Of a stretch of 64,000 bases of DNA, positions 4,504 through 31,071 are shown piece after piece. The stretch lies in the NCBI GenBank assembly GCA_963736455.1, contig CAVTON010000001.1, positions 778,270-842,269 of the forward strand. The letters run 5' to 3'. How positions within the stretch are numbered: position 1 is the first letter of the stretch; the number at the start of each line of letters is the position of its first letter. The translations under genes and the position numbers were made by a program. This DNA comes from an uncultured Acidobacteriota bacterium (GTDB lineage Bacteria > Acidobacteriota > Thermoanaerobaculia > UBA5066 > Gp7-AA6). Below the pieces are notes generated by a model. It did no database searches. It had not been told where the DNA came from and saw only the letters and a list, made by a program, of their open reading frames with translations.

Positions 4504-4535
4504 TCGGCTTAGGCTAGTTTTTCGTTGACGAAAAC

Positions 4536-5603: not shown

Positions 5604-5609
5604 CCTCCC

Positions 5610-13216: not shown

Positions 13217-13223
13217 AGGCGCG

Positions 13224-15458: not shown

Positions 15459-15495
15459 CGCGCCGCCCGGGCCGGCTCCGCCCTTGCCGGGAGCG

Positions 15496-16065: not shown

Positions 16066-16210
16066 CTCCTTACGTATTGTCCATCTCGGGACCCTATTCT
16101 AGCCGACCCGCGAAGGACCGGATTTCGCTCGGAGAGCCCGAGGCAGCCGACGTGAGGCTCCGGAGCTGACTTCCGCGCCGCGCCGGAGCCGCACGGCAAC
16201 CCAGACGAAA

Positions 16211-16232
16211 CGGCCGGCCCGAAGGCCGGCCG
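16211..16232 (-). terminator. GC-rich hairpin terminator downstream of the SLH-like gene 16255-17037
   Basis: CGGCCGGCC-CGAA-GGCCGGCCG perfect stem-loop; on the minus strand it is followed by GTTTCGTCT. The 29-nt element gaaacggccggcccgaaggccggccgcga is repeated at 17105-17133. Confidence 0.5.
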
Positions 16233-16254
16233 CGAGGTGGGTCGGGAAATCCGA

Positions 16255-17037
16255 TCAGTCCGGCCAGTAGAGCCCGAGCGCCTTGGCGAGAAAGATCGCC
16301 ATCTGCCGGCGATTGACGGGGTTGTCCGGACAGTAGTTCCCGCCGCCGCAGCCGCCCGTGATTCCCGAGGCGGCGAGCGCCTCGATGTACTGGTACCCGA
16401 AGTCGGTCGTCGGCACGTCGCCGAACGTCGGCGTGGCCGGCGCCGGGCTGACGACGGTGTGCCACCAGACCTCGACGGAGCCGAAGTTGACGGAGCCGTC
16501 CACCGGCGCGCCGTCCTGCTCGTAGACGTCGAGCTGGAGGCTCGTGGCCGCGTTCGTCAAGAGCTGGTATCCCAGGGTGCTCGGGCTGTAATCCATGGCG
16601 CAGGGCGTGGTCGGGCCATGGGCGGAACTGACGAAGTCCTCGACCGTCACGTACGTCGAGCCGTCGGCCGGCTGGAAGTAGACCGCCACGCCGAGGTTCG
16701 CCCCCGCCTGATCGCAGGAACCCAGGCCGATCTGATCGATGACGGCGCCCGCAGGAAGAATGAGCGGCGCCGTGTTGTCGGCCGGGATCGCCAGGTCATA
16801 GCGAAAGAACGTATCCACATCCGAGGAGTAGCCCACTCCCGAGTCGATCGGGACAAAGCCGACGGACGAGACGGTCGACACGTTGGTCGTTCCGCCGAAC
16901 CCCGCAGGGCCCGCCGCCCTCGCACTCGGCTTTTGACGGACGCCGATCCGGCTGTGGACATGGGTCCGATGAGAGGCGCCGAGAGCGACGCCCGAGAGCA
17001 GAAGGGAGACCCCGACCGCCAGAATCTTTTTGGACAC
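16255..17037 (-). CDS. Secreted protein with C-terminal SLH-like (S-layer homology-like) domain
   Basis: Signal peptide. The C-terminus TPTFGDVPTTDFGYQYIEALAASGITGGCGGGNYCPDNPVNRRQMAIFLAKALGL fits the SLH pattern (F-DV...I..L...GI..G...P...VTR.Q.A.FL). It is a paralog of 17158-17955. Confidence 0.6.
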   Translation of the reverse strand: MSKKILAVGVSLLLSGVALGASHRTHVHSRIGVRQKPSARAAGPAGFGGTTNVSTVSSVGFVPIDSGVGYSSDVDTFFRYDLAIPADNTAPLILPAGAVIDQIGLGSCDQAGANLGVAVYFQPADGSTYVTVEDFVSSAHGPTTPCAMDYSPSTLGYQLLTNAATSLQLDVYEQDGAPVDGSVNFGSVEVWWHTVVSPAPATPTFGDVPTTDFGYQYIEALAASGITGGCGGGNYCPDNPVNRRQMAIFLAKALGLYWPD

Positions 17038-17109
17038 GAGTACCTCCTTGATGCACCGGATTCTATGCCCGGAGGCACTCTCCCTTCGACGGACAGGCTG
17101 AAAATGAAA

Positions 17110-17131
17110 CGGCCGGCCCGAAGGCCGGCCG
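17110..17131 (-). terminator. GC-rich hairpin terminator downstream of the SLH-like gene 17158-17955
   Basis: Identical CGGCCGGCCCGAAGGCCGGCCG hairpin, followed on the minus strand by GTTTCATTTTCAG (T-rich). Confidence 0.55.
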
Positions 17132-17157
17132 CGAAAGAATCGATTAGTGGATTTCGC

Positions 17158-17955
17158 CTACTCCCACTGGAGGCCGAGGGCCTTCGCCAGAAACACCGCC
17201 ATCTGACGCCGGGTCAGCGTCGCATCGGGGCAGTAGTTGCCGCCGCCGCATCCCGCCGTGATCCCGGAGCTGACCAGGGCTTCGATGTACTGGAAGCCCG
17301 GATCCGTCGTCGGGACGTCGCCAAAGGTGGGCGTCATGGGCGCCGGGCTGACTTGCAGAACGTAGTGGATGATGGCCCCGGCAATCCCCGTCGAGCCGTC
17401 GATGTCGGGAACGAAGACCACCAGGACGAACTGATTGTTGTTATTGTCGACCGTGAAGGGCGTGGTCAGCGAGGCCGAAAATCCGCCGCATCCGCCGCTG
17501 CCGGAGCTGGACACGGAGGTGATCAGCGTGGCGCCCGTTCCGTCCCAGCTCGTCGAGACGAGGTTCATGATGACGTCGTCGGTGGCGTTGGTGTCGCAGG
17601 CGTCGAGCTCTACACTCGTGATCGACGCGCCGGAGGGCAAGTGAGGCGAGGCGACGAAAGCGCTTCCTGCATTCGCCGTGGGATACCGGGCGTAAATGAG
17701 CCCAACCTGGGAGAGGTCGCTGTAGGTCGTGTCCGTATTGGCCGGGGAGAATTCGGTGGAGGACACCCGATAGAAGCTCGTATAGGTGGTGCCGTAAGTC
17801 TGGGGAAGTCTCGGAGGGGCGGCGATCGACGGAGCGGACGGTTGAGCCAGAATGGTCGGCGCACCCGCCGCGAGATTCTGTCCCTGGAGGCCCGAGACCG
17901 CAAGAAGCGACAGAAAGGCCGAAGCGAAGACAGCCCTCTTCACGGATATCGACAT
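17158..17955 (-). CDS. Secreted protein with C-terminal SLH-like domain (paralog of 16255-17037)
   Basis: Signal peptide; C-terminal 55 aa nearly identical to the neighbouring paralog (MTPTFGDVPTTDPGFQYIEALVSSGITAGCGGGNYCPDATLTRRQMAVFLAKALGL); AAGGAG-like RBS (aaggagaaaaaagatg). Confidence 0.6.
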   Translation of the reverse strand: MSISVKRAVFASAFLSLLAVSGLQGQNLAAGAPTILAQPSAPSIAAPPRLPQTYGTTYTSFYRVSSTEFSPANTDTTYSDLSQVGLIYARYPTANAGSAFVASPHLPSGASITSVELDACDTNATDDVIMNLVSTSWDGTGATLITSVSSSGSGGCGGFSASLTTPFTVDNNNNQFVLVVFVPDIDGSTGIAGAIIHYVLQVSPAPMTPTFGDVPTTDPGFQYIEALVSSGITAGCGGGNYCPDATLTRRQMAVFLAKALGLQWE

Positions 17956-18036: not shown

Positions 18037-19395
18037 TCAGCTCCGGAACACCTTCTCCTCGGTCCCGTCCAGCCAGCGATCCACGAGCTCGACGCCCTGC
18101 ATGAGCGAGTGATCCTGGTTGCCGATCTCGTACTTCCACGAGCCGAAGCGGCCTCGCGAGAAGATCCCGCGAGGCTCGAGATAGGCGTGGATCGTCTCGA
18201 GCGCCGGATTCCGATCGACCGACGGGATCGGGTACGAGTGGCCGGCGTGGATGAGAAAGACCGTCTCGATCAGCGGAAGATCGGACGCTTGAAGGATTCC
18301 CTCGGCGACGAGGCCGTCCACGACGGCCTGGCCGAAGTCGCCCTCGGGCAGCGGCTTGAACTTCGAGTAGGACGTTTCGGTCAGGACCGAGAAGTACTTC
18401 GACGTGTCGCCGCCCGGAACGATCTCGGGAGAGTAGTTGGACAGGTACGTCATCCGGTAGAACGGCGTCTTCGGGTTCGGAAAGTAGATCCAGTTCTTGT
18501 CCGACGGCGAGGGGCGGCGCAGGCCGACGCCGGCCGAGAACAGCCGGTTGAAGAGGAGCGACTGCGCCGCCGCCCGGACCTTCGCCGGCGCGTGCGTCAG
18601 GCGCGCGACGAACGCGTCCAGGGGAATCGTCGTCAGCAACCGGTCGTAAGAGCGCGTCGTTCCGTCGGTGAACGCGATCTCGCGCTTCTCCTCGTCCACT
18701 GAGATCGCGCGCTTGTGGAAACGGATGCGGTCGTCGCCGAGAAACGGCACGACTCCCTTCCAGAGCCCGAGCGTTCCGCCGTGGAGGGGGTAGCCGAACT
18801 TCGCGTTGGGACCCCAGTCGGTCGTCTTCGGCACGACCGTCGTCTCGATCGCCTTGCGCCAGTCGACGACCGACACGCGCTCGGCGATCCAGTAGTAGCC
18901 CATCTCCTTCAGGGGCGTCGCCCAGACCTTGAAGTTGTAGGGGTTCATGAAGTGCTTCGCGACGCCCGATCCGAACTTCGCGAGGACCCACTCCTCGAAG
19001 TTGCGAAAGGCGCGGTCCTTGTCGATCGTCTGCGACTCGACGAGGCCGATCAGGCACTCGAGCATCGCTTTCTCGGGCAGCGACGAAAGGTGGTTCTGAA
19101 ACGGATACCGGACGTACTTGTCCTCGAACTTGATCCAGCTCTCGCGGTCGATCCAGCGAATCTGATCGCCGAGGACCTTCCCGAGGAAATCGTTGAAGTA
19201 CTTGTACCCCGAAAAGATGATGTGGCCCGACACGTCCCACGTCCATCCCTTCGGGTCCTTGAAGCTCGTGGCGAGGCCGCCGACCTGTCCCGACCTCTCG
19301 AAGATCTCGAAAGCGTCCTCGCCGCGCTCGCGGAGCCGGTACGCGGCGCCGAGGCCCGTCGGGCCCGCGCCGAGAATGACGATGCCGCCGCTCAC
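18037..19395 (-). CDS. glf: UDP-galactopyranose mutase, eukaryote-type (UDP-Galp to UDP-Galf)
   Basis: ILGAGPTGLGAAYRL FAD motif; GHIIFSGYKYFNDFL; YPFQNHLSSLP; FEEWVLAKFGSGVAKHFMNPYNFKVWA; C-terminal SRGRFGSWKYEIGNQDHSLMQGVELVD. These closely track the fungal/kinetoplastid-type UGM signature blocks. Confidence 0.85.
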   Translation of the reverse strand: MSGGIVILGAGPTGLGAAYRLRERGEDAFEIFERSGQVGGLATSFKDPKGWTWDVSGHIIFSGYKYFNDFLGKVLGDQIRWIDRESWIKFEDKYVRYPFQNHLSSLPEKAMLECLIGLVESQTIDKDRAFRNFEEWVLAKFGSGVAKHFMNPYNFKVWATPLKEMGYYWIAERVSVVDWRKAIETTVVPKTTDWGPNAKFGYPLHGGTLGLWKGVVPFLGDDRIRFHKRAISVDEEKREIAFTDGTTRSYDRLLTTIPLDAFVARLTHAPAKVRAAAQSLLFNRLFSAGVGLRRPSPSDKNWIYFPNPKTPFYRMTYLSNYSPEIVPGGDTSKYFSVLTETSYSKFKPLPEGDFGQAVVDGLVAEGILQASDLPLIETVFLIHAGHSYPIPSVDRNPALETIHAYLEPRGIFSRGRFGSWKYEIGNQDHSLMQGVELVDRWLDGTEEKVFRS

Positions 19396-20195
19396 TGGGC
19401 GGCCCGTCCCTTGGCGACGAGCCGCCGGAGCTGCTCGGCCTGCTTCATCTCGGCCCGGAGCTCGAAGAGGTAGCGGATCACGCGTGCGATCGTGCCCAGC
19501 ATCTTGAACGGACGATGGATGGACTGCCCGGCCTCGCGCGGGAAGTGCCGCACCACGACCTCGGTCACCTTCCAGCCGGCGATCCGGCAGCGCACGAAGA
19601 TCTCGTCGCCGACGAAGTTGATCCGGTGCTTGATCTCGATGCGGCGCGCGACGTCCCGCCGGAAGGCCCGGCAGCCGGCGTTGATGTCGTGGAGCGGCGA
19701 GCCCAGGATCCAGTGCGACAGGACGCGAAGGCCGCGCGAGAGGATGAGCCGTCCGAGCGGGTCGTGCCGGACCTTCTTCCAGCAGAAGACGACGTCGGCG
19801 CCGCGGTCGATCGCGTCGAGAAAGAGCGGCGCGTCGGCCATCGTGTGCTGGCCGTCGCCGTCGACGACCATCACGACCTCGCCCGGCACGTTCTGCAGCG
19901 CCGTCTCGGTCGCCACCGCGTAGCCCTTGTTGCCGTCGTGGTGGACGACGGAAACGCGCGGATCCTTCTTCGCGAGCTCTTCGGCGATCTCCCCCGTCCG
20001 GTCCCGGCTGCCGTCGTTGACGACGACGACGTGCCAGGTGAGGTCGGGGATCGCGGAGAGCGACGCGACGGCTTCGGCGACCGTCTTCGCGATCAGCTCT
20101 TCTTCGTTGTAGGCCAGGAACCCGACTCCGAAGCGCACCTTCGGCTCCGGCCGAGGGGGCGTCTGGACGCCCCCGACTTCGCGATCAGCGGCCAT
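19392..20195 (-). CDS. GT2 polyprenyl-phosphate sugar synthase (DPM1/GtrB-like)
   Basis: FLAYNEEELI ... VVVVNDGSRDRTGEIAEEL ... VVDGDGQH: canonical GT2 DXD region of dolichol/bactoprenol-phosphate hexose synthases. The stop overlaps the glf start by 4 nt. Confidence 0.8.
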   Translation of the reverse strand: MAADREVGGVQTPPRPEPKVRFGVGFLAYNEEELIAKTVAEAVASLSAIPDLTWHVVVVNDGSRDRTGEIAEELAKKDPRVSVVHHDGNKGYAVATETALQNVPGEVVMVVDGDGQHTMADAPLFLDAIDRGADVVFCWKKVRHDPLGRLILSRGLRVLSHWILGSPLHDINAGCRAFRRDVARRIEIKHRINFVGDEIFVRCRIAGWKVTEVVVRHFPREAGQSIHRPFKMLGTIARVIRYLFELRAEMKQAEQLRRLVAKGRAAQ

Positions 20196-21129
20196 AGATG
20201 ATCCATCCTGCAGTTGCCACCCAGCCCATCACGATGACCAGGAGCCACGGATCGTCCACGAGGAGGGCCTGGGTGGGGCTGCCCCCTCCGCCGCGGCGGT
20301 ACACGAGGTGAACGTAGCGCGCGAGGCCAAGAACGACGAACGGGATCGTCGCCGCGAGCGTCTGGCCGCGATAGCGCGCGACCGTCTCCGGGATGACGCT
20401 GTACGCGCTGTACGCCGACGCCGTCGCCAGGCCCGTGACGATGAAGAGATAGTCGAGCCCCTCGGCGCCGTAGGAGGCGAGTGCCGGCCGGTGCTCGGAG
20501 GAGGTCCGGTGGCCGGCGTGATGGAACTCCCACTGCCGCTTTCCGGCGACGAGGAAGAGCGCGAGCAGGTAGGCGCAGACGATCAGGAAGAGCGACGGGA
20601 AGACTTCCGCCAGCGCCGCCCCGGCGAGGGCGCGCAGCGGCATCCCCGCCGCGACGATCAGCGCCTCGAGGAAGGGAATGCCCTTGAGGACGAAGGAATA
20701 CGCGAGCATGAGCGCGGCGTACGCGGCGCACCACCGGCCGAACGCCGGCCGGAGGAGGAACGCAGCCCCGAGGCCTCCGACCTCGAGGACGACTGCACCC
20801 GCCACCGCGGCCGGGACGGACAATCGGCCGGACGCGAGCGGCCGGTGGCGCTTCTCGGGATGCGCGCGGTCGCGGTCGCGGTCCATGACGTCGTTGACGA
20901 GGTAGATGCCGCTCGCGATCGCGCTGAAGGCCGCGAATCCCGCCGCGGCGAGCACCCACCCTTCGGCCGCCTTGAGCGCTCCGCCGAAGAGAAACGGCAG
21001 CGGCAGGACGAGATTCTTGATCCACTGCTTCGGCCTCGCCGCCGCCGCGAGCGCGAGCAGAGATCGATCGGCGTGCGACCCTTCGGCCGGCACGACGCGA
21101 CCGGACGATGTCGCTGCCATTTCTCTCAT
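20185..21129 (-). CDS. UbiA-family prenyl-phosphate phosphoribosyltransferase (decaprenyl-phosphate 5-phosphoribosyltransferase/DPPR synthase-like)
   Basis: PKQWIKNLVLPLPFLFGG and YLVNDVMDRDRDRAHPEKRHRPLASGRLS (NDxxDxxxD followed by HP.KR.RP.A.G) match the Rv3806c-type DPPR synthase signature rather than UbiA/MenA/DGGGPS. 8-9 TM helices. The stop overlaps the GT2 start by 11 nt. Confidence 0.75.
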   Translation of the reverse strand: MREMAATSSGRVVPAEGSHADRSLLALAAAARPKQWIKNLVLPLPFLFGGALKAAEGWVLAAAGFAAFSAIASGIYLVNDVMDRDRDRAHPEKRHRPLASGRLSVPAAVAGAVVLEVGGLGAAFLLRPAFGRWCAAYAALMLAYSFVLKGIPFLEALIVAAGMPLRALAGAALAEVFPSLFLIVCAYLLALFLVAGKRQWEFHHAGHRTSSEHRPALASYGAEGLDYLFIVTGLATASAYSAYSVIPETVARYRGQTLAATIPFVVLGLARYVHLVYRRGGGGSPTQALLVDDPWLLVIVMGWVATAGWIIYGR

Positions 21130-21204
21130 TTTAAACGATTAACCCTCGATTGTCTCCTCGCCGCTGTAGGATTCTCGGCGGCTGAGCCGATAAGGAGTCC
21201 TCCC

Positions 21205-22527
21205 ATGCCGGAGCAGTACGTCGCCCGCGTCGTCGACCTGACGGATCCCGCCGCCCAGCGCATCCAGAACATGTCGATCGACGAGGCGCGCGCGCGCGTG
21301 GCGCGCGGCGATCCCGGGAGCGTGCGCGAGATCGACGGCTCGTTCTCACTCGTCGCCCGCGTCGGGCGCCGCGTCCGCCTCGCGCGATCGCTCGATCGGC
21401 CCCTGCGGTACTTCCTCGCCAAGGAAGCCGCCGGTCCGGCGCTCGTCGTCTCGGACCGCATCGACGCCATCCACGCCTTTCTCGAGAAGGAAGGCCTGGC
21501 CGCCCAATTCCATCCGAGCTACACGCGCATGGTGCCCGCGCACTACGTGGTAGATCTCGAGCTGATCGGCTGCCCCGACCCGTCACCGACGTACGAGCGC
21601 TACTTCACGCCGGCGCGCGCGGCGTTCTCCGCCGATCCCGCGGCGATCGGATCGGCGTACGTCGGAGCGCTGTGCGGGGAGATCGCGGGCTGGATCGAGA
21701 GGGTGCCCGCGCGCGACCCGATCGGAGTCGCCTTCTCCGGCGGGATCGACAGCGGCGCCGTGTTTCTCGCCGCCTGCCACGTCCTGCGCCGGCGGGGGGC
21801 CGACCTCGGCCGCCTGAAAGCGTTCACGCTCTCCGCCGGCGGAGGCGAGGACCTCGTGCAGGCCCGGACCTTCCTCGAGAGGCTCGGGCTCGGACTCTTT
21901 CTCGAGCCGATCGAGGTCGCGCCGGATGCCCTCGACCCGCTCGAGGCGGTTCGCGTCGTCGAGGACTACAAGCCGCTCGACGTCGAGTCGGCGACGATGG
22001 CGCTCGCGCTCTGCCGCGGAATTCGCGAGCGGTACCCGCAATGGCGCTTCCTCCTCGACGGCGACGGCGGCGATGAGAACCTGAAGGACTACCCGATCGA
22101 GGAGAACGCCGAGCTCACGATCCGGAGCGTGGTGAACAATCCCCTGCTCTACCAGGAGGGCTGGGGCGTCGGCCGGATGAAGCACTCCCTGACGTACTCG
22201 GGTGGCCAGAGCCGCTCGTACAGCCGCACCTACGCGCCTCTCCGGCGGTGCGGCTTCGAGGGGTTCAGCCCCTTCACGCGGCCGTCGGTCATCGAGATCG
22301 CCGAGGCCATCCCGTTTTCCGAGATGGCGGCCGGCGACACGGCCCGGCTCTATGCGATCAAGGGCGAGGTCGTCGCGCGGGGCATCGCGGAGATCACGGG
22401 CTTCGAGATGCCGGTGTTTCCGAAGCGCCGCTTCCAGCACGGCGCCGTCGGCGCTCACGCGGCCTCGCGCTTCGCGCCCTTCGGCGAGGCCGCCTACCGG
22501 TCGCACCTGCTCGCGCGCTACGCGTGA
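21205..22527 (+). CDS. Asparagine synthetase B-like ATP-dependent amidotransferase/amide synthetase (PP-loop; degenerate N-terminal domain without catalytic Cys)
   Basis: AAGGAG RBS 8 nt upstream of the ATG at 21205. VAFSGGIDSGAV PP-loop (SGGxDS). The N-terminal remnant DGSFSLVARVGRRVRLARSLDRPLRYF resembles the AsnB DGMFAF..ARDRFGIKPLYY block. It begins MPEQ... with no Cys2, as in beta-lactam-synthetase-type AsnB homologs. The upstream part of the 739-aa ORF is an artefact. Confidence 0.75.
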   Translation: MPEQYVARVVDLTDPAAQRIQNMSIDEARARVARGDPGSVREIDGSFSLVARVGRRVRLARSLDRPLRYFLAKEAAGPALVVSDRIDAIHAFLEKEGLAAQFHPSYTRMVPAHYVVDLELIGCPDPSPTYERYFTPARAAFSADPAAIGSAYVGALCGEIAGWIERVPARDPIGVAFSGGIDSGAVFLAACHVLRRRGADLGRLKAFTLSAGGGEDLVQARTFLERLGLGLFLEPIEVAPDALDPLEAVRVVEDYKPLDVESATMALALCRGIRERYPQWRFLLDGDGGDENLKDYPIEENAELTIRSVVNNPLLYQEGWGVGRMKHSLTYSGGQSRSYSRTYAPLRRCGFEGFSPFTRPSVIEIAEAIPFSEMAAGDTARLYAIKGEVVARGIAEITGFEMPVFPKRRFQHGAVGAHAASRFAPFGEAAYRSHLLARYA

Positions 22528-22534
22528 CCCCGTC

Positions 22535-23497
22535 TTGAGCTCCGCCTACCCGGCCGGGGACGCCGCGCGCGATCGGTGGATCCTGGAACGGCGGCCGCTC
22601 CGAAACGTTCGCGATCCGCGGCGCGCCTACGCCGCGCACTTCGAGCTCGAAGCGGCGGAAGCCGGCGAGGCGGTGCCGGTCGCCACGATCTTCCTGACGA
22701 ATCGCGAGTGCCCGTGGCGCTGCCTGATGTGCGACCTCTGGAAGAACACGCTGACCGGGACCGTGCCCTCCGGCGCGATCGCGGAACAGATCCGGGTCGC
22801 CCTGGCCGGACTCCCCGCGGCCCGCCGCGTCAAGCTCTACAACGCCGGGAGCTTCTTCGATCCGAAGGCGATTCCTCCCGGCGACCTCGACGAGATCGCG
22901 TCGCTCGTGAGCCCCTTCGAGCGCGTGGTCGTCGAGGCGCATCCGGCCCTCGTCGGCGAGTCCTGCCGGCGCTTCCACGACCTCGTCGGCCGGCGCCTCG
23001 AGGTCGCGATGGGGCTCGAGACGATCCATCCGGACGTCCTGCCGAGGCTGAACAAGCGGATGCCTCTCGACCGTTTCGCCGGGGCGGCGGCCTTTCTCCG
23101 CGACGCGGGAATCGCCCTGCGCGTCTTCGTCCTCGCGGGGCTTCCGTTCGTCGGCGAGGCCGAAGGCCTCGACGCCACGAAGCGGTCGATCTCCTGGGCC
23201 TTCGACCACGGCGCATCGTCGGTCGCCGTCATCCCCACGCGTTCGGGAAACGGCTCGCTCGAGGCACTCGCGGCGGCAGGAGACTTCGCCGAGCCCCGGC
23301 TTTCGGTGCTCGAGGACGCCGTGGATTTCGGCATCGGCCTCGGGCGGGGCCGCGTCTTCGCGGATCTCTGGGACCTCGGGCGGTTTCGCCGGTGCGGCGC
23401 CTGCTTCGAGACTCGCGCCGCGCGGCTGGCCGAGTCGAACCTCCGCCAGCGCGTCTCGGCCCGGGTCGCCTGTTCGGAGTGCGGAGGGCGGGCGTGA
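22535..23497 (+). CDS. Radical SAM enzyme
   Basis: CPWRCLMC (CxxxCxxC) cluster about 40 aa from the N-terminus; TTG start at 22535, 8 nt after the upstream stop; the stop overlaps the next gene's GTG. Confidence 0.7.
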   Translation: MSSAYPAGDAARDRWILERRPLRNVRDPRRAYAAHFELEAAEAGEAVPVATIFLTNRECPWRCLMCDLWKNTLTGTVPSGAIAEQIRVALAGLPAARRVKLYNAGSFFDPKAIPPGDLDEIASLVSPFERVVVEAHPALVGESCRRFHDLVGRRLEVAMGLETIHPDVLPRLNKRMPLDRFAGAAAFLRDAGIALRVFVLAGLPFVGEAEGLDATKRSISWAFDHGASSVAVIPTRSGNGSLEALAAAGDFAEPRLSVLEDAVDFGIGLGRGRVFADLWDLGRFRRCGACFETRAARLAESNLRQRVSARVACSECGGRA

Positions 23498-25062
23498 CGC
23501 ATCCCGTCGACGTCGCGGTGATCGGCTCCGGCTTCTCCGGCTCGCTCCTGGCCCTGATCGCGCGGCGTCTCGGGCGATCCGTCGTCCTCCTCGAGCGCGG
23601 CCGGCATCCGCGCTTTGCGATCGGAGAGTCGTCGTCGCCGCTGGCGAACCTGCTGCTCGAGGAGCTTGCGCGGCGGTACGACCTGCCGCGGGTGCGGCCG
23701 CTCTCCGCCTGGGGACCGTGGCGCCGCGCGTACCCCGAGGTCGGCTGCGGCCTGAAGCGCGGCTTCACCTTCTACGCGCACGAGGCGGGGCGGCCCCTTG
23801 CGGCCGATCCCGGCCGCCGCGACCAGCTCCTCGTGGCCGCGAGCCCGCACGACGAGGTCGCCGACACGCACTGGTATCGCCCCGACCTCGACCGCTTTCT
23901 CGCCCGGGAGGCCGAGAACGCCGGCGCGGAATACGTCGACGAGGCGGAGGCCGCCGTGGTTTCGCATGGACCGCACGGCTTCGTCCTGGCCGCATCGAGG
24001 CACGGCCGGCGTCGCGAATACCGCGCCCGTTTCGTCGTGGACGCGACCGGCCCGAACGGATTCCTCCAGCGCGCGTTGGGGCTCCCCGCTTCCTCGTTCG
24101 CGGCCATGCCCGCGACCGAGGGCCTGTGGGCGCACTTCACGGGAGTGGGACGGCTCGACGAGACGGCTCCCTCGCCTTGCCCCGACCGACCGCCCTATCC
24201 GATCGACGACGCCGCGGTCCATCACGTGTTCGCCGGCGGCTGGATCTGGGTCCTGCGCTTTGCGAATGGCGTCACGAGCGCCGGGGTCGCCGCCGAGCCG
24301 GCGCTCGGAAACGAGCTGCGGCTGTCCGACGGTGCGCCCGCGTGGGATCGCCTCCTCGAACGCCTCCCCACCGTCCGCGCCCAGTTTTCGGAGGCTCGGC
24401 CGGCCACCTCCTTCGTTCACCGCTCCGGCCTTCCCTTCCGCAGCGACGCGGCGGCCGGACCGGCCTGGGCCCTGATGCCCTCGGCGGCAGCCTTCGTCGA
24501 TCCGCTCCTCTCGACCGGGTTCCCGCTGACGCTTCTCGGCATCGAGCGCCTCGCCGCGGCCCTGGAAACGGAGTGGGGCCGGCCCGGCTTCGCGGCGAGA
24601 CTGCGCGAGCACGAGCGCCTCACCCTCTTCGAGGCGGACACGGCCGCCCTTCTCGTCGGGGCCCTGTACGCGACGTTTTCCGATTTCCCCGTCTTCGCCG
24701 CGCTCACGATGCTGTACTTCGCGGCCGCGAGCTACGCCGAAGCGGCGCGGCGGCTCAAGCGGCCGCAGCTTTCGGGCTCGTTTCTGTCGGGAGACCATCC
24801 CATCTTCGGGCCGGCATTGAAGGCCTGCTGCTCCACCGCCCTCGAGCGCGATGGCCGCCGCCGGGACGAGCTCCTCGCGATGGTCCGGCGGGCGATCGAA
24901 CCGCTCGACGTGATCGGGCTCTCCGACACGAGCCGGCGCAACTGGTACCCCGTCCTCGCGGAGGACCTGATCGCTTCGCGGGAGAAGCTCGGGGCCAGCC
25001 GGGAGGAGATCGAGGTCCTCCTGGAATCCCTGGCCGCCGCGCCCTCAGTGCATGGAATGTGA
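23494..25062 (+). CDS. FAD-dependent oxidoreductase, flavin-dependent halogenase / geranylgeranyl-reductase-like fold
   Basis: GGAGGG RBS, GTG start (GTGA overlap). VAVIGSGFSGSLLA dinucleotide-binding motif; FAIGESS; HVFAGGWIWVLRF resembles the WxWxIP block of flavin-dependent halogenases; 522 aa. Confidence 0.7.
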   Translation: MTHPVDVAVIGSGFSGSLLALIARRLGRSVVLLERGRHPRFAIGESSSPLANLLLEELARRYDLPRVRPLSAWGPWRRAYPEVGCGLKRGFTFYAHEAGRPLAADPGRRDQLLVAASPHDEVADTHWYRPDLDRFLAREAENAGAEYVDEAEAAVVSHGPHGFVLAASRHGRRREYRARFVVDATGPNGFLQRALGLPASSFAAMPATEGLWAHFTGVGRLDETAPSPCPDRPPYPIDDAAVHHVFAGGWIWVLRFANGVTSAGVAAEPALGNELRLSDGAPAWDRLLERLPTVRAQFSEARPATSFVHRSGLPFRSDAAAGPAWALMPSAAAFVDPLLSTGFPLTLLGIERLAAALETEWGRPGFAARLREHERLTLFEADTAALLVGALYATFSDFPVFAALTMLYFAAASYAEAARRLKRPQLSGSFLSGDHPIFGPALKACCSTALERDGRRRDELLAMVRRAIEPLDVIGLSDTSRRNWYPVLAEDLIASREKLGASREEIEVLLESLAAAPSVHGM

Positions 25063-26271
25063 GCCCATGCTCGAGAGCTCGAACGCGATCCTCATGAAGA
25101 CGTGGAAGGAGACCGGGTTTCGCGAGTAGACCGGGTCGAGCCGGTCCGTGAACCGGTAGAGCGTCACGTCGGCGCCGAGTCCCGTCGAGAGAAATGAGAC
25201 CACCGGGAAATTCCGCGCGTAGCCGAGCGTGGCGGCATCGACGCGAGTCCGGTCCGGCGGAACGCCCGGCGGCGGCTGGCTCTTGTGCACGAGCACGAAG
25301 AGGTCTCGATCGACCGCCTCGAGACGGCCGTAGATCGTGTTCCAGTGCCCGAACACCCAGTTCCACTCGAGGAGCGTCCCCCACGCGACCTCGCCGCTCT
25401 CCTCGTTGCGCCCCGTGATGAGCGATACGGCGAGCGACCCGTCCGGCAGGACCGTCTCGTAGGCGATCATTCCCGTCAGCCGGGTGAGGTCACCGGGCTC
25501 CGCCGCTTCCGGGTTGGTGAGATGTCCCCCCGAGACCTGCACCGTCCAGCCTTCCAACGGAGTCACCGTCAGCCGCCCCGAGAACGAATCGATCGCTCCC
25601 GCCTGGATGTTCCAGCGGTTCTCGTCGGGCTCGGCGCCGTGAAAGGCCGACCCCTCGAGGACCACGCTCCCCGAGGTCAGGCCGAGCGTCAGCACGTCGT
25701 AGGAGATGTGGGTCGAATCCTGGTTGTGATGCGAAAGAGGGGCCGTGGGATTCTCGAGGGCCGATGCGCGGTGAACGAACGCCGGGGGACCGAGCGCCGG
25801 CTCGCCGACGGCCGCGGCATAGAACGAAAGGCTCGTGTCGCGCGAGAGCTGCTTCTCCCAGGAGCCGGCGATCTGCGCGAAGAAGTCGTGGGGATGCTGC
25901 ACGTCCACGAGAAGCACGCCCTGGTTGGTCTCCCCGGTCTGGAAGAGCTCCGGGCTGCCGGGCGACGGGATCGTCGCCGGCTCGAGCGACAGCGTTCCGA
26001 GCAGGGTGAGCTTTCCGCCGAGAAACGAGCGCATCGCCATGCCCATGAAGTGGTTCTGCGACTCGAGCGCGTGGCCGCCGGAGGGCCCGCCCTGGTCGTC
26101 GTAGTTCACGAACATCCAGCCGTGGACCATCGTCATCCAGTGGTCCATCGCGGGCATGTCCTTCATGGCCTTCATCGGATCTGCGGGCGGCAGGCTCCCG
26201 CCCTCCTGCGCGTGGGCGCACATGACGAGGCCGAAACAGAAAACGAAAGCCATCGGGATTCGAACCGGCAT
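25045..26271 (-). CDS. Secreted hypothetical protein with Met/His-rich N-terminal motif
   Basis: Signal peptide (FVFCFGLVMCAHA), then PMKAMKDMPAMDHWMTMVHGWM (Met/His-rich, copper-site-like); no recognisable domain; 408 aa. Confidence 0.5.
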   Translation of the reverse strand: MPVRIPMAFVFCFGLVMCAHAQEGGSLPPADPMKAMKDMPAMDHWMTMVHGWMFVNYDDQGGPSGGHALESQNHFMGMAMRSFLGGKLTLLGTLSLEPATIPSPGSPELFQTGETNQGVLLVDVQHPHDFFAQIAGSWEKQLSRDTSLSFYAAAVGEPALGPPAFVHRASALENPTAPLSHHNQDSTHISYDVLTLGLTSGSVVLEGSAFHGAEPDENRWNIQAGAIDSFSGRLTVTPLEGWTVQVSGGHLTNPEAAEPGDLTRLTGMIAYETVLPDGSLAVSLITGRNEESGEVAWGTLLEWNWVFGHWNTIYGRLEAVDRDLFVLVHKSQPPPGVPPDRTRVDAATLGYARNFPVVSFLSTGLGADVTLYRFTDRLDPVYSRNPVSFHVFMRIAFELSSMGSHSMH

Positions 26272-26728: not shown

Positions 26729-27604
26729 TCACTCTCCCCGCGTGAGCCGGCGATAGGTCCGCAGGTGCCGCAGCGCCTCCGCGGGCCGGCCCAGACGCTC
26801 GGCCAGAGCGGCCGCGTTGAAGTGCGCGTCGGCGTTGTCCGGATCGAGACGCACCGCGTGCTGGTATTCGAGCAGCGCCTCGGGCAGGCGGCGCAGGTCT
26901 TCGAGCGCGACGCCCAGGTTGAACGCCGCGGTCGCGTCCTCGGGCCGCAGCTCCAGCGCGCGGCGATAGAGGGGCTCGGCCGCCGCCGGCTCGCCCGACT
27001 CGTGCAGCAGCCGGCCGAGGTTCACGAGGGCATCGGTGTGATCGGGATCGAGCTCGAGCGCTCGCGCGTAGGCATCGCGGGCCTCGGCCGGGGAGGCCGG
27101 CTCGAGCTCGCAGGCCCATTCGTACCAGTCGTCGGCCGAGAGCTCCCCCGGGTCTTCCCGCGCCTCGCGAAGCGCCCGGCGTACCACGGGAGAGTTCTCC
27201 TGCGCGTCCGCGGCGCCGAAGTCGAAGAGGATCTGACCCGACTCCGGCTGCCAGCGCCGCGAGCCCTCCTCGACGACGATCCGGCTGCCCTCGGCGGCGA
27301 TCCGCACTCCCGTCAGCGGCCGGTTGGCCGGCATCTGCGCGCGCAGGCGTCGCAGGGCCCGTCGGATCCGTCGGTGAGGAACGCCCGCCTCGACGAGGCC
27401 TCCGGCCGTCCGCAGAAAGACCAGATCCTGGAACGAGAAGCGCCACCGGCGCCCGGCACCGCGCTCGGGAGAAAGGAATCCCGCGCGGACGTAGCCGCGC
27501 ACCCTCGAGTCCGGAACGGCGAGGAGCTTCGCGACTTCCCGGGTGGAGTAGCCCTTCAAGCCAATCTCAGGATACCCGAGATTGGCCCGTCGGGCGGCGG
27601 TCAA
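26729..27604 (-). CDS. MerR-family HTH domain + TPR-repeat protein
   Basis: N-terminal YSTREVAKLLAVPDSRVRGYVRAGFLSPER...WRFSFQDLVFLR fits the MerR HTH; the C-terminal half has TPR-like repeats (AYARALELDPDHTDALVNLGRLL...). Its ATG overlaps the Ku stop by 4 nt. Confidence 0.6.
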   Translation of the reverse strand: MTAARRANLGYPEIGLKGYSTREVAKLLAVPDSRVRGYVRAGFLSPERGAGRRWRFSFQDLVFLRTAGGLVEAGVPHRRIRRALRRLRAQMPANRPLTGVRIAAEGSRIVVEEGSRRWQPESGQILFDFGAADAQENSPVVRRALREAREDPGELSADDWYEWACELEPASPAEARDAYARALELDPDHTDALVNLGRLLHESGEPAAAEPLYRRALELRPEDATAAFNLGVALEDLRRLPEALLEYQHAVRLDPDNADAHFNAAALAERLGRPAEALRHLRTYRRLTRGE

Positions 27605-28494
27605 GCCTTGCGCGCCGACTCGCTTCTCATCTGCGCGACCCGGGCGGGCGCGCGCCTGGCAGGCTTGCGGGAAGACTCTCCGGCGGAGGCCGGCTTCGCC
27701 GAAGGAGCGGCCGCGGCCTCGGGCTTCTTCGCGAGGCTCGCCTTGAGGGCCTCCATCAGGTCGATGATCTGGCCGCCGCCCGCCTCGGGCGGGGCAATCG
27801 AAATGTCCTCGCCCTCGACCTTCTTCTGGATGAGCCCGAGAATCCGCTTCTTGACGTCGTCCTCGTAGGTCTCCGGCTTGAAGGCGTCCGTCGCGCGCTG
27901 GTCCACGAGCAGCTTGGCGAGGTCGAGCTCTTTCGCGCTGACCTCGGCCGATTCGACCGGGACGTCGGCGAACGATCGGACCTCGTCGGCGTAGTAGAGC
28001 TGCTGCATCACGATACCGCCGTCGAGCGGGCGCAGGAGAACGAGGTACTGCTTCCCGCGCGCCGCGTAGCGCGCCAGCGCGACTCGCCCGGTCTCCTGCA
28101 TCACCTTCGACAGCAGCGCGTACGCCTTGGCGCCGCCCTTGTCGGGGCCGACGTAGTAGGTGCGGTCGAAGTAGACCGGATCGACCTTCGCGATCGGGAC
28201 GAACTCGACGACCTCGATCGACTGTGTCGATTGCTCCTCGAGCGCCTTGAGCTCCTCGGGAGTGAAGGTGACGTAGCGGTCCTTCGAGAACTCGTAGCCC
28301 TTGACCATCTGGTCGCGGGGGACGACTTCGCCGTCCTTCGTGCAGAGATACTGCTGCTTCAGCCGCGCCCCGTCCTTACCGTGCAGCATGTTGAAGGAAA
28401 TGGCGGCCGACGCGTCCGCGGCCGCGTAGAGCTTGATCGGGATCGAGACCAGCCCGAAAGAGATCGTTCCCGCCGCTATAGGCCTTGCGCTCAT
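27601..28494 (-). CDS. ku: Ku protein (NHEJ DNA end-binding)
   Basis: MSARPIAAGTISFGLVSIPIKLYAA... is the canonical bacterial Ku N-terminus, with a Lys/Ala-rich C-terminal tail; 297 aa. The upstream 2.5 kb of the 1143-aa ORF is antisense to ligD and is an artefact. Confidence 0.9.
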   Translation of the reverse strand: MSARPIAAGTISFGLVSIPIKLYAAADASAAISFNMLHGKDGARLKQQYLCTKDGEVVPRDQMVKGYEFSKDRYVTFTPEELKALEEQSTQSIEVVEFVPIAKVDPVYFDRTYYVGPDKGGAKAYALLSKVMQETGRVALARYAARGKQYLVLLRPLDGGIVMQQLYYADEVRSFADVPVESAEVSAKELDLAKLLVDQRATDAFKPETYEDDVKKRILGLIQKKVEGEDISIAPPEAGGGQIIDLMEALKASLAKKPEAAAAPSAKPASAGESSRKPARRAPARVAQMRSESARKA

Positions 28495-28518
28495 AGGTTT
28501 AGGACCGACAAGGTTAAC

Positions 28519-31071
28519 ATGGCCCGGGGTCCGCCGAAGTTGTCGCTCGAAAAATACCGTCAGAAGCGCTCCGCCGATTCGACGCCCGAGCCCTTCGGGC
28601 GCGCCGGCCCGGGGCGTCCGCATCTCTTCGTGGTTCAGAAACATGCGGCCACGCGCCTGCACTACGACTTCCGCCTGGAGTGGGACGGGGTCCTGAAGTC
28701 CTGGGCCGTTCCCCAGGGCCCCTCGCCCGACCCCGCCGAGAAGAGGCTCGCGGTCGAGGTCGAGGACCATCCGGTCGAGTACGCCGATTTCGAAGGCGTC
28801 ATCCCCGAGGGCAACTACGGCGCCGGCGAGGTCATCGTCTGGGACCAGGGACGCTGGACGCCGCTCGCCGACCTCGACGAAGGGATGAAGAAGGGAAAGC
28901 TCCTCTTCGAGCTGTCCGGCTACAAGCTCCGCGGCCGCTGGACGCTCGTCCGCATGAAGACGAAGGGCAAGACCACGGGCAAAGAGTGGCTGCTGATCAA
29001 GGAGCGCGACGGGTTCGTGCGAAAGGGTCCGGAGGCGGCCTATCCGCAGGAGTCGATCTTCTCGGGACGCACGGTCGAGGACCTGGCCTCGGGCTCGAGC
29101 CGCGCGGCGGAGATTCGCGAGGAGCTCGTCCGGCTGGGGGCGCCCCGGCGCGAGGTGAGAATTCGGGACGTCAAGCTGATGCTCGCCGAGACCCGCGAGG
29201 CGGCGTTCACGCGGCCGGGCTGGATCTGGGAGCTCAAGTACGACGGCTATCGCCTCCTCGCCGGCCGCGAGGACGGGAAGCCGGCGCTGCGCTACCGCCA
29301 CGGCATGGACTCGACCGGGACGTTTCCCGAAATCGCCCGCGCGGTCGCGGCGCTTCCCTCCGAGAGCTTCATCCTCGACGGCGAGGTCGTGGTCCTCGAT
29401 GCGAAGTCTCAGCCGCGCTTCGGCCTGCTCCAGAAACGCGCGCTCCTTCAGCGCCGGCCCGACATCGATCGGGCCGCGGTCGAGCTTCCGGCCACGCTCT
29501 TCGCCTTCGACCTGCTCGCCTTCGAAGGCTTCGACCTGCGCCCGCTCCCGCTCGTTCAGCGCAAGGCGCTGCTTCGAAAGCTGCTGCCTCGCGCCGGTCC
29601 CGTGCGCTTTGCGGACGACGTCGCCGAGCGGGGCGACGATCTGCTCGCGGCCGCCGGCGAGCTCCACCTCGAAGGAGTCGTCGGCAAGAAGGCCGACTCG
29701 CCGTACCGGGGGGCGCGCTCCGGAGACTGGGTCAAGGTGAGGCTCGACCGGACCGGCGACTTCGCCGTCGTGGGCTACACGAAGCCGGATGGGGCGCGGT
29801 CCGGTTTCGGAGCGCTCCACCTCGCCTCGTGGCAGGACGGAGGCCTCGTCTATGCCGGCCGCGTCGGGACGGGCTTTTCCGAGAAACAGCTCGCCGAGCT
29901 CCACGGGCGCCTCTCGAAGAAAGCGCGTTCGTCTCCCGGATTCGGCGGCGCGGTTCCGACGGGGCGCGGCCACGTCTGGGTCGAGCCCGAGCTCGTCGTC
30001 GAGGTCAGGTTCAAGGAGCGGACGACCGACGGCCTCCTGCGCCACCCCGCGTTCCTGCGGGTCCGCGACGACAAGCCGATCGACGAGTGCGTTCGCGAGG
30101 ACGATCCGGGCGCCGGCGAGCCCGACGCCGCTCCGCCGGCCTCGGAGGCCGCCGCGCCGGCCCCGATCGAGCCCGAGGAGAAGACCGTTCCGTTTTCCAA
30201 CCTCACGAAGGTCTTCTGGCCCGACGAGGGATACACCAAGGGCGATCTGATCGACTACTACCGCGCGATCTCGCCGTGGCTCCTCCCCTACCTGAGGGAC
30301 CGCCCGCTCGTGATGACCCGTTACCCCGACGGCATCGCCGGAAAGTCGTTCTTCCAGAAGGACGCCCCGCACTTCGCGCCCGACTGGATCCGTCTCGAGC
30401 GCATCTGGAGCGAGCACGCCGAGCGCGAGATCGATTACTTCGTCTGCGACGACGTCGAGACCCTTCTCTACGTGGCGAACCTCGGGTCGATTCCCCTGCA
30501 CGTCTGGGCGAGCCGCGTGGCGTCGCCCGAGCGCCCCGACTGGTGCATCCTCGACCTCGATCCGAAGGGGGCGCCGTTCTCGCACGTCGTCGAGATCGCG
30601 AACGCGATTCACGTCCTCTGCGACGAGATCGGCCTTCCGAACTTCATCAAGACGAGCGGCGCCACGGGCCTTCACGTCCTGCTGCCCCTCGGCGGCCAGT
30701 GCACGCACGCCGAATCCCGGACGCTCGGCGAGATCCTCGCCCGCGCGATCGAGCAGGATCACGGGAAGGTCGCGACGACCGCGCGCATGCTCGGTTCGCG
30801 GGGCGGGAAGGTCTACGTCGACTATCTTCAGAACGGCCACGGCAAGACCATCGCCGGTCCGTTCTCGGCCCGGCCCGTTCCGGGCGCGACCTGCTCCGCG
30901 CCGCTCCGGTGGACCGAGGTCAACGCCAGGCTCGATCCGAGGAACTACACGATCAAGACCCTTCCGGCGCGCATGAAGCGCGCGAAGAACGACCCCCTGG
31001 CCCCGGTCCTCACGCTCAAACCGGACATCCACTCCGCCCTCGCGCGGCTGACGGAACGCCTCAGGAACTGA
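28519..31071 (+). CDS. ligD: Multidomain ATP-dependent DNA ligase LigD (phosphoesterase-ligase-polymerase order)
   Basis: N-terminal PE domain (FVVQKHAATRLHYDFRLE), ligase domain with motif I WIWELKYDGYRLLA, and a C-terminal primase-polymerase domain (LLPYLRDRPLVMTRYPDGI...SIPLHVW); 850 aa; ATG at 28519. Confidence 0.9.
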   Translation: MARGPPKLSLEKYRQKRSADSTPEPFGRAGPGRPHLFVVQKHAATRLHYDFRLEWDGVLKSWAVPQGPSPDPAEKRLAVEVEDHPVEYADFEGVIPEGNYGAGEVIVWDQGRWTPLADLDEGMKKGKLLFELSGYKLRGRWTLVRMKTKGKTTGKEWLLIKERDGFVRKGPEAAYPQESIFSGRTVEDLASGSSRAAEIREELVRLGAPRREVRIRDVKLMLAETREAAFTRPGWIWELKYDGYRLLAGREDGKPALRYRHGMDSTGTFPEIARAVAALPSESFILDGEVVVLDAKSQPRFGLLQKRALLQRRPDIDRAAVELPATLFAFDLLAFEGFDLRPLPLVQRKALLRKLLPRAGPVRFADDVAERGDDLLAAAGELHLEGVVGKKADSPYRGARSGDWVKVRLDRTGDFAVVGYTKPDGARSGFGALHLASWQDGGLVYAGRVGTGFSEKQLAELHGRLSKKARSSPGFGGAVPTGRGHVWVEPELVVEVRFKERTTDGLLRHPAFLRVRDDKPIDECVREDDPGAGEPDAAPPASEAAAPAPIEPEEKTVPFSNLTKVFWPDEGYTKGDLIDYYRAISPWLLPYLRDRPLVMTRYPDGIAGKSFFQKDAPHFAPDWIRLERIWSEHAEREIDYFVCDDVETLLYVANLGSIPLHVWASRVASPERPDWCILDLDPKGAPFSHVVEIANAIHVLCDEIGLPNFIKTSGATGLHVLLPLGGQCTHAESRTLGEILARAIEQDHGKVATTARMLGSRGGKVYVDYLQNGHGKTIAGPFSARPVPGATCSAPLRWTEVNARLDPRNYTIKTLPARMKRAKNDPLAPVLTLKPDIHSALARLTERLRN

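Follow-up and report, generated by a model that had tools for sequence, protein, structure and literature searches.

PltM, the phloroglucinol halogenase of Pseudomonas protegens, and CtcP, the chlortetracycline 7-halogenase, are described relatives of one protein of the locus presented here. A second described system with related proteins is the enediyne PKSE/E10/E3/E4/E5 cassette, which reportedly leads to iodinated heptaene and tetrayne intermediates by cryptic halogenation followed by oxidative desaturation, and so to iodinated polyenes and polyynes. The locus in question is a three-gene operon (termed the triad) in a 64,000-nt stretch of DNA (the whole stretch is termed the window) from an uncultured Acidobacteriota bacterium of the Thermoanaerobaculia (assembly GCA_963736455.1, contig CAVTON010000001.1). 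It encodes an asparagine synthetase B (AsnB)-like protein (gene 1), a radical S-adenosylmethionine (SAM) protein (gene 2) and a flavoprotein of the PltM/CtcP type (gene 3). The triad is retained in four phyla, and in many relatives it lies beside homologues of the enediyne E4 and E5 proteins.

We propose that the triad is neither an accessory of the adjoining operon for lipid-linked sugars nor a peptide-maturation cluster. We give about an even chance to its being a self-contained small-molecule pathway that includes a (possibly cryptic) halogenation and produces or tailors a small, carboxylate-bearing, electron-rich metabolite.

Organization of the operon

The three genes lie on the forward strand at positions 21205–25062 (Table 1) and are supported by third-position GC periodicity and by open reading frame (ORF) lists; the G+C content of the window is about 70%. 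Genes 1 and 2 are separated by a 7-nt gap (22528–22534), and genes 2 and 3 overlap at the sequence GTGA. The gene 2 product is 100% identical to a public gene call (P0001) that is likewise 320 aa long, whereas looking up its exact sequence gave no contig; the lengths of the three proteins recur in homologues. The triad is a single operon with translational coupling. A preliminary description of this DNA, made from its letters alone, had reported the tight coupling, the GTGA overlap and the 75-nt divergent spacer, all of which are read in the sequence; the 8-nt gap it gave between genes 1 and 2 is in fact 7 nt.

The spacer has the ribosome-binding site AAGGAG at positions 21192–21197 and is presumed to be the site of the triad promoter. 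A consensus scan of positions 20900–25400 gave a single sigma-70-like site, on the minus strand (21156–21128), and no terminator-like site.

The three proteins

The preliminary description had named the three enzyme classes, and the Pfam matches and motifs agree with it. The catalytic motifs of the three classes are intact.

Pfam shows the gene 3 product to be a flavin adenine dinucleotide (FAD) protein with Trp_halogenase, DAO and geranylgeranyl (GG) reductase-type matches. The best NCBIfam match is QhpG (73.6 bits against a cutoff of 240), with weaker matches to GoxB (36.5 against 400) and LodB (22 against 400). As the class is ambiguous by Pfam and NCBIfam, it was decided by the family profile, which matches PltM (PDB 6bzt, E-value = 4.7e-69) and CtcP (PDB 7xgb, E-value = 4.2e-63) with about 405 residues aligned. 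A geranylgeranyl reductase was rejected on account of the much stronger PltM/CtcP profile, a sub-cutoff score (61.3 bits with TIGR02032, cutoff 158.8) and the GG reductase structures in PDB, which match the N-terminal Rossmann region only. A maturase of the QhpG, LodB or GoxB type was rejected as well: the scores are below the cutoffs and there is no qhpC-, lodA- or goxA-like gene. Thus, of the “halogenase/GG-reductase-like” label in the preliminary description, the first half stands and the second is dropped.

The residues G11-x-G13-x-x-G16 of gene 3 (FAD-binding GxGxxG) are invariant. Also invariant is K88 in CGLKRGF, which is aligned with K87 in the PltM sequence ACGIKLGF. K87 is the catalytic lysine of PltM, and the K87A protein is inactive (PMC6424973); the equivalent lysine of CtcP is K98 (PMC12400496). 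The substrates of both enzymes are free small molecules (PMC6424973, PMC12400496). GWIWVLRF of gene 3 is aligned with the WxWxIP motif (PltM GWLWVIPF); W250 and W252 are invariant and IP is changed to LR. Judged by these alignments, gene 3 encodes a halogenase-type enzyme of the PltM/CtcP clade, a clade whose substrates are free small molecules of the phenolic or polyketide kind.

In gene 1, the match to PF00733 (Asn_synthase) is limited to residues 166–304. The N-terminus reads MPEQYVARV and confirms the earlier statement that the glutaminase cysteine (Cys2) is absent; homologues start with M..YxERxVDL, and the N-domain is about 150 residues long. The family alignment shows two invariant motifs, the PP-loop S178-G-G-I-D-S183 (SGGxDS) and the acidic motif D285-G-D-G-G-D-E291, which aligns with 346-SGEGSDE-352 of E. 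coli AsnB. With no N-terminal Cys and with scores below the equivalog cutoffs (TIGR01536, 38.6 bits against 267; NF006949, 21 bits against 499), a glutamine-hydrolysing asparagine synthetase B was rejected. The nearest fold is that of beta-lactam synthetase, i.e. the AsnB two-domain fold without the glutaminase nucleophile. Gene 1 encodes an ATP-dependent (PP-loop) amide-bond synthetase of the AsnB/beta-lactam-synthetase fold with a truncated N-terminal Ntn domain. The region at positions 297–345 is strongly conserved (QEGWGVG.KHSLTYSGG.SRSY.RTYAP); the predicted model is unsure there, with pLDDT <50 at positions 295–304 and 312–334.

The gene 2 product has the radical SAM motif CPWRCLMC, in which C59-x3-C63-x2-C66 is invariant, and a C-terminal motif, C287-x2-C290 ... 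C313-x2-C316. Its best NCBIfam family is RaSEA (TIGR01210), with 74.7 bits against a cutoff of 212.15 and over residues 47–260 only; the other match is TIGR01212 (YtqA/MnmL), with 16 bits against 180. No PDB relative was found by sequence, and the top Foldseek matches are to the Elp3 radical SAM domain, with a TM-score of about 0.5. Because of the sub-cutoff family scores, the lack of a PDB relative and the low Elp3 TM-score, gene 2 is placed in a distinct radical SAM subfamily near RaSEA, Elp3 and YtqA. The family comprises 546 clusters at 50% identity (E-value ≤1e-30). RaSEA itself was rejected, given the score below the curated cutoff and the lack of ArcS or of an archaeosine/preQ0 context: genes of the ArcS, TGT or Que type are not found among Pfam-annotated neighbours and do not recur in an 81-locus neighbour clustering.

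The only plasmid-borne relative of gene 2 (30% identity over 200 aa) is at positions 406401–407516 of plasmid pFRL3 of Streptomyces sp. FR1. Its neighbours are P450, serine hydroxymethyltransferase, GT9, carbamoyltransferase and heptose-nucleotide genes, and this setting is probably an unrelated sugar/nucleoside natural-product cluster. The plasmid collection has no AsnB-like homologue.

NCBIfam, Pfam, PADLOC and Rfam gave no pathway family at cutoff for the triad, and full-text searching of the literature found no description of such a pathway. This bears out the earlier remark that no match of the triad to a characterised pathway could be made. The hidden Markov model check proposed at that time likewise gave no cofactor or tRNA-pathway model at cutoff, and so does not refute the reading.

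Phylogenetic distribution

One genome was scanned for each GTDB species; at least 559 matches were confirmed among 600 stretches, and the best 80 loci were examined. These 80 loci belong to Acidobacteriota, Verrucomicrobiota, Planctomycetota and Armatimonadota; the Acidobacteriota among them are Thermoanaerobaculia, Blastocatellia, Terriglobia-type Acidobacteriaceae, Bryobacterales and Holophagales. Of 74 testable loci from different species, 69 have the AsnB-like gene as the immediate upstream neighbour of the radical SAM gene; the halogenase gene is the immediate downstream neighbour of the radical SAM gene in an equal number (69/74). This arrangement is far above chance expectation, and the synteny test suggested in the preliminary description thus does not refute the triad. 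Exceptions are Verrucomicrobiota loci in which the AsnB-like gene is displaced or not nearby, and Planctomycetota loci with no halogenase gene close by.

In a few loci, unrelated genes are inserted in the triad. These were considered as possible accessory enzymes and rejected, since they comprise genes for an RRXRR/HNH endonuclease and an extracytoplasmic function (ECF) sigma factor, and unannotated ORFs. The endonuclease gene (locus L009, positions 9297–10334) lies between the radical SAM and halogenase genes as a mobile-element insertion; the triad is otherwise intact.

Each of the three proteins has an interphylum identity of 55%–65%, and the genes that flank the triad are otherwise unrelated among loci. 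All three families have a near-neutral or acidic isoelectric point (pI), with medians of 6.3–6.5. In public metagenomes, clusters of each of the three proteins run into the thousands; the radical SAM and AsnB-like proteins form at least 7,900 clusters each at 90% identity, and their nearest named homologues, among the matches listed, are from Thermoanaerobaculia (Acidobacteriota).

Homologues of enediyne E4 and E5 in related loci

The first sign of a further association came from clustering of neighbouring ORFs: in about 35–39 Acidobacteriaceae loci, the triad has FG-GAP/ASPIC and RnfD-like genes downstream of it. Targeted tblastn showed a gene for a CRTAC1/UnbV-like beta-propeller (termed FG2), followed by an overlapping RnfD-like gene. 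In 37 of the 80 loci, no more than about 5 kb separates this pair from the triad. At least four architectures occur, in which the pair is convergent and downstream together with a second FG-GAP gene (FG1), convergent and downstream without FG1, upstream, or part of a co-directional operon. The last form, FG2-RnfD-like-AsnB-like-radical SAM, is found in both Planctomycetota loci. FG2 of Singulisphaera has 61%–70% identity to that of Acidobacteria, and the RnfD-like protein has 59%–63% identity between phyla; the paralogue FG1 is about 30% identical to FG2.

A reciprocal test was made with 80 metagenome loci centred on the RnfD-like gene. Wherever the flank allows, FG2 is always upstream of the RnfD-like gene, with an overlap of a few bases. 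Among the 37 loci whose flank measures 4 kb or more, 8 carry triad genes directly downstream of the RnfD-like gene. The triad is upstream in one more locus, and the halogenase alone is upstream in three. In these three (L125, L130 and L153), a 49%-identical halogenase homologue is directly upstream of FG2 and the RnfD-like gene; the next 6 kb upstream contain a TPR-FG-GAP protein and no AsnB-like or radical SAM gene.

FG2 shows 27% identity to Streptomyces E4 over 592 aa (E-value = 1e-48). The RnfD-like protein matches E5 with an hhalign probability of 98%, and the motifs RHxxNPSN and MITDPxTT are common to both. RnfD-like proteins match the E5 gene of Streptomyces enediyne cassettes, which stands beside a “CRTAC1 family protein” (E4), and one such locus (L084) has the canonical cassette order E3-E4-E5-PKSE-TE. 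In addition, many RnfD-like proteins carry the Joint Genome Institute (JGI) label “enediyne biosynthesis protein E5”. By these comparisons, FG2 and the RnfD-like protein are homologues, over their full length, of enediyne E4 (UnbV) and E5 (UnbU), respectively. If the iodination in enediyne biosynthesis is as outlined in the opening paragraph, E4/E5-type proteins occur together with halogen chemistry in both systems.

P0354, found when domain fusions were sought, is an 896-aa called protein that joins a 38%-identical radical SAM relative to FG-GAP/ASPIC. Its second half opens with a signal-peptide-like sequence of its own (MFTKRKPLNLLARLLVIALFGC). Because of this start, P0354 is probably a read-through of two adjacent genes; a true fusion was rejected and P0354 was used as evidence of adjacency only.

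A conserved Acidobacteria operon (L016, positions 10513–15035; also L167 and L088–L165) consists of genes for a TPR-FG-GAP/ASPIC protein (~1,100–1,300 aa), FG2, the RnfD/UnbU-like protein and FG1. The RnfD-like protein shows no obvious SGAT flavinylation motif. In the window, polyketide synthase (PKS), thioesterase and RnfD/UnbU-type domains are absent from the 27 proteins scanned with Pfam, about 16 further genes being outside that scan.

Proposed pathway

Several properties point to a small-molecule substrate: the pI values, the substrates of PltM and CtcP, the beta-lactam-synthetase-like fold of gene 1 and the absence of a precursor ORF. From the enzyme classes we infer a division of labour, a substrate, an order of steps and a product, as follows. 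The radical SAM enzyme would generate a 5′-deoxyadenosyl radical and abstract hydrogen from a C-H bond, leading to a rearrangement, a change of C-C or C-N bonds, or a cleavage. The Cys-less AsnB-like enzyme would adenylate a carboxylate by means of its PP-loop and join it to a nitrogen from a source other than glutamine. This could be free ammonia, an amine, or an internal amine, the last leading to a lactam in the manner of beta-lactam synthetase and CarA. The gene 3 enzyme would form hypohalous acid from FADH2, O2 and halide, with Lys88 steering the halogenation of an activated carbon. The halogen may be kept in the product or may serve as a cryptic leaving group. In Terriglobia-type Acidobacteriota and Planctomycetota, the product of the triad may be passed to or from an oxidative step of the E4/E5 type at the membrane or in the periplasm, such as serves to form the enediyne core; the physical joining of the operon to the E4/E5 homologues suggests this connection.

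A broader possibility, which we hold tentatively and regard as less likely than not, is that the triad and the E4/E5-like pair together form a widespread, PKS-independent pathway by which abundant soil bacteria make a hitherto unknown class of halogenated or highly unsaturated metabolite, and that they are related in evolution to the least understood enediyne warhead enzymes, or are even their source. Flavin-dependent (perhaps cryptic) halogenation, radical SAM chemistry and amide formation would then feed the E4/E5-type oxidative step.

A number of observations weigh against a small-molecule pathway with halogenation. All of its chemical steps are taken from superfamily membership, and RaSEA, YtqA/MnmL and Elp3, to which the radical SAM protein is closest by sequence, act on tRNA. 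The WxWxIP motif reads WxWxLR in gene 3, a change that may bear on whether the enzyme halogenates or performs other flavin chemistry. No flavin reductase gene is adjacent to the triad in the window or among annotated neighbours of related loci, and Planctomycetota loci are without a nearby halogenase. The interphylum identity of 55%–65% is unusually high for secondary metabolism and would fit a macromolecular or housekeeping substrate too. Finally, FG-GAP/ASPIC has no match in the 64-kb window, and the E4/E5-like pair is absent within 8 kb on either side of the Thermoanaerobaculia, Blastocatellia, Verrucomicrobiota and Armatimonadota loci.

Alternative functions

The alternative that survives best, although we consider it improbable, is protein maturation. 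Before a target protein leaves the cell, the triad would modify it to build a protein-derived cofactor or a cross-link, with the FG2 beta-propeller of other lineages as a candidate target. Quinohemoprotein amine dehydrogenase, whose maturation is carried out by the radical SAM protein QhpD and the flavoprotein QhpG, serves as the model, and the AsnB-like protein would form an isopeptide or lactam. QhpG is indeed the best NCBIfam match of the flavoprotein (with GoxB and LodB behind it), exported FG-GAP/ASPIC proteins repeatedly adjoin the triad, conservation across phyla is high for all partners, which evolve at a similar rate, and Cys-less AsnB homologues are generally known to form lactam or isopeptide bonds in lasso peptides. 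The QhpG score, however, is less than a third of its cutoff, whereas the PltM profile match is strong and the halogenase lysine is conserved; PltM and CtcP use free small molecules. Moreover, enediyne E4 and E5 are considered to act on a polyketide-derived small molecule and not to be the modified substrate, and the triad has no linked beta-propeller gene in the window, nor in four of the lineages.

Modification of a nucleoside or of tRNA is a good deal less probable. The radical SAM enzyme would act on a modified base, the PP-loop enzyme would amidate a carboxylated nucleoside, and the flavoprotein would oxidise or halogenate it. The sole NCBIfam matches of the radical SAM protein (RaSEA and MnmL) and its top Foldseek matches (Elp3) agree with this, as does the knowledge that many PP-loop ATPases act on tRNA. 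The very slow evolution suits a macromolecular substrate, and the C-terminal four-Cys motif could be a zinc ribbon. Both family scores are nevertheless far under their cutoffs. No ArcS, TGT or QueC/D/E-type gene is annotated near the triad or recurs across loci, and the pI medians are atypical of RNA-binding enzymes. Occurrence in a few mainly soil-associated phyla is unlike core tRNA modification, and linkage to exported and membrane homologues of E4 and E5 is hard to reconcile with it.

The preliminary description had suggested, as one possibility, that the triad tailors a lipid-linked sugar made by the divergent operon (DPPRS-like, GT2 and flavoprotein genes, Table 1). The two operons do have the 75-nt spacer in common, an envelope-glycosylation island containing GT-C enzymes makes up the left flank of the window, and the UbiA/GT2/flavoprotein operon adjoins the triad in 8 of 83 related loci (L002–L004, L006–L008, L017 and L083). 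These eight, however, are the closest Thermoanaerobaculia relatives (68%–90% identity), so that the adjacency counts as one evolutionary event, and the other approximately 70 loci have the triad in unrelated contexts without UbiA/GT2. In the same Thermoanaerobaculia genomes, the UbiA/GT2/flavoprotein proteins are 78%–97% identical as against 68%–79% for the adjacent triad; the divergent envelope operon is under unusually strong constraint. Because the adjacency is confined to the closest relatives, the triad is considered an autonomous unit that abuts the envelope-glycosylation island. The suggestion of a sugar-tailoring role is therefore disfavoured, with a very small probability.

A precursor peptide was looked for as well. 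In about 65 loci with a complete triad, ORFs of 20–110 aa were sought in six frames up to 700 bp from either end of the triad; no conserved small ORF was found, which answers in the negative the RODEO-type check proposed earlier; the sole recurrent small ORFs near the triad are shadow frames of the neighbouring FG-GAP gene. RRE/PqqD, transglutaminase-like and leader peptidase genes do not recur near the triad, and a lasso-peptide system was rejected, there being no precursor, leader peptidase (B) or RRE nearby. A cluster for a ribosomally made peptide that is modified after translation (RiPP), lasso-like or other, with the AsnB homologue as macrolactam cyclase and the radical SAM protein and halogenase as tailoring enzymes, is the least probable reading and is disfavoured. 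In its favour, Cys-less AsnB homologues serve as lasso cyclases, halogenases and radical SAM maturases of peptides are known (general knowledge; PMC10849128), and a transglutaminase-like gene stands upstream of the radical SAM gene in one Verrucomicrobiota locus (L023). Against it, these searches were negative, the interphylum identity is far above that usual for such enzymes, and the halogenase is nearest to the small-molecule enzymes PltM and CtcP.

The remaining probability, outside the small-molecule pathway and these four alternatives, is left for an explanation not yet conceived.

Neighbouring genes of the window

Table 1. Positions of the triad and of neighbouring features in the window.
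Feature	Positions	Strand	Remarks
Triad gene 1, AsnB-like	21205–22527	+	440 aa; ATG start; AAGGAG 8 nt upstream
Triad gene 2, radical SAM	22535–23497	+	320 aa; TTG start
Triad gene 3, PltM/CtcP-type flavoprotein	23494–25062	+	522 aa; GTG start
Spacer, AT-richer	21130–21204	none	75 nt; common to the divergent UbiA gene (start 21129)
Divergent operon	18037–21129	−	UbiA/DPPRS-like; GT2 polyprenyl-phosphate-hexose-synthase-like; PRK07208-type amine-oxidase-like flavoprotein
Envelope-glycosylation island	2543–17955		GT4, methyltransferase, NAD epimerase/dehydratase, GT-C/PMT_2 and SLH-domain proteins
Protein with signal peptide	25045–26271	−	408 aa; no Pfam or NCBIfam match
MerR-HTH/TPR regulator	26729–27604	−	
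Ku	27601–28770	−	
Multidomain LigD	~28519–31071	+	divergent from Ku

The divergent operon had earlier been called a DPPRS/GT2/UGM operon. The UbiA protein is DPPRS-like, although its 182 bits are below the NCBIfam cutoffs of 207–234. The UGM part does not hold: the third protein has Amino_oxidase/PRK07208-type matches, and no UGM family is among them. In the island to the left, three very large GT-C/PMT_2 membrane proteins are fused to NHL beta-propellers (one of them also has DUF2298), and next come two SLH-domain proteins in tandem. An island of this make-up suggests that the S-layer or envelope is glycosylated from polyprenyl-phosphate sugars.

The gene for the 408-aa protein and the halogenase gene are convergent, with an 18-nt overlap at the 3′ end of the latter; the protein is conserved in close relatives only (48%–93% identity). 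Ku and LigD form a non-homologous end-joining pair, and the relative L083 has the same MerR-HTH/TPR, Ku and LigD arrangement. Rfam elements and tRNA genes were not found in the window, and there is no PADLOC match to defence systems.

Discussion

Each enzyme of the triad comes from a known superfamily. Their combination, its breadth in soil phyla and the E4/E5 link are new to the family libraries and the literature searched. The triad was detected in several hundred species of four phyla common in soil, and is nearly always intact in the best 80 loci. If the gene 3 enzyme is an active halogenase, it may be among the more widespread flavin-dependent halogenase systems of soil, and could bear on the question of which organisms produce natural soil organohalogens. 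The E4/E5 link offers a simpler, PKS-free setting for working out two long-enigmatic proteins. Culturable hosts are among the carriers, e.g. Singulisphaera, Acidobacterium and Alloacidobacterium. In addition, the radical SAM and AsnB-like proteins represent distinct, very slowly evolving subfamilies without a solved close relative.

Comparison with known systems

Beta-lactam synthetase, CarA and AsnB are about 500–550 aa long, whereas gene 1 encodes 440 aa with a shortened N-domain. Sequence likeness to AsnB extends over about 130 residues only (E-value = 1e-4), and E348 of AsnB is an Asp in gene 1. Beta-lactam synthetase and CarA give no sequence-profile match to gene 1, even at E-value ≤10, and unlike these enzymes the triad has no clavam or carbapenem genes nearby.

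The gene 2 protein has in common with RaSEA, YtqA/MnmL and Elp3 the canonical CxxxCxxC partial-barrel core. It differs from RaSEA in a score of about a third of the cutoff, in the lack of an ArcS partner, in its bacterial hosts and in a spread limited to a few, mainly soil-associated phyla; unlike Elp3, it has no acetyltransferase domain. Its own elements, relative to RaSEA and Elp3, are the N-terminal YP..RDRWIL.RRP.R and the C-terminal four-Cys motif.

Gene 3 also has the HPRFxxGE motif and the extra helical C-terminal region of PltM and CtcP. As read from the alignment, the substrate-contact residue Glu49 of PltM corresponds to an invariant Leu50, and the last ~110 residues of gene 3 are not alignable. 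The contexts differ as well, i.e. a radical SAM/AsnB-like operon for gene 3 and a polyketide or pyoluteorin cluster for PltM and CtcP.

The maturation system of quinohemoprotein amine dehydrogenase resembles the triad in having a radical SAM protein and a flavoprotein together and, in some lineages, an exported partner nearby. Unlike the QhpD system, the radical SAM protein of the triad has no SPASM domain, and there is no gene for a QhpC-like small subunit or a protease.

In enediyne cassettes, E4 is followed by E5, in the same gene order and with the same tight coupling as FG2 and the RnfD-like gene. The cassettes also have PKSE, a thioesterase and E3 (DUF1702), none of which is seen among annotated genes at the pair loci of the relatives. 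Unlike the cassettes, the pair in the relatives often has a second FG-GAP/ASPIC paralogue after it and a TPR-FG-GAP protein before it. The pair is hosted by Acidobacteriota and Planctomycetota, and the enediyne cassettes by actinomycetes. Beside the pair, the AsnB-like, radical SAM and flavin-halogenase genes take the place that PKSE, the thioesterase and E3 have in the enediyne cassette.

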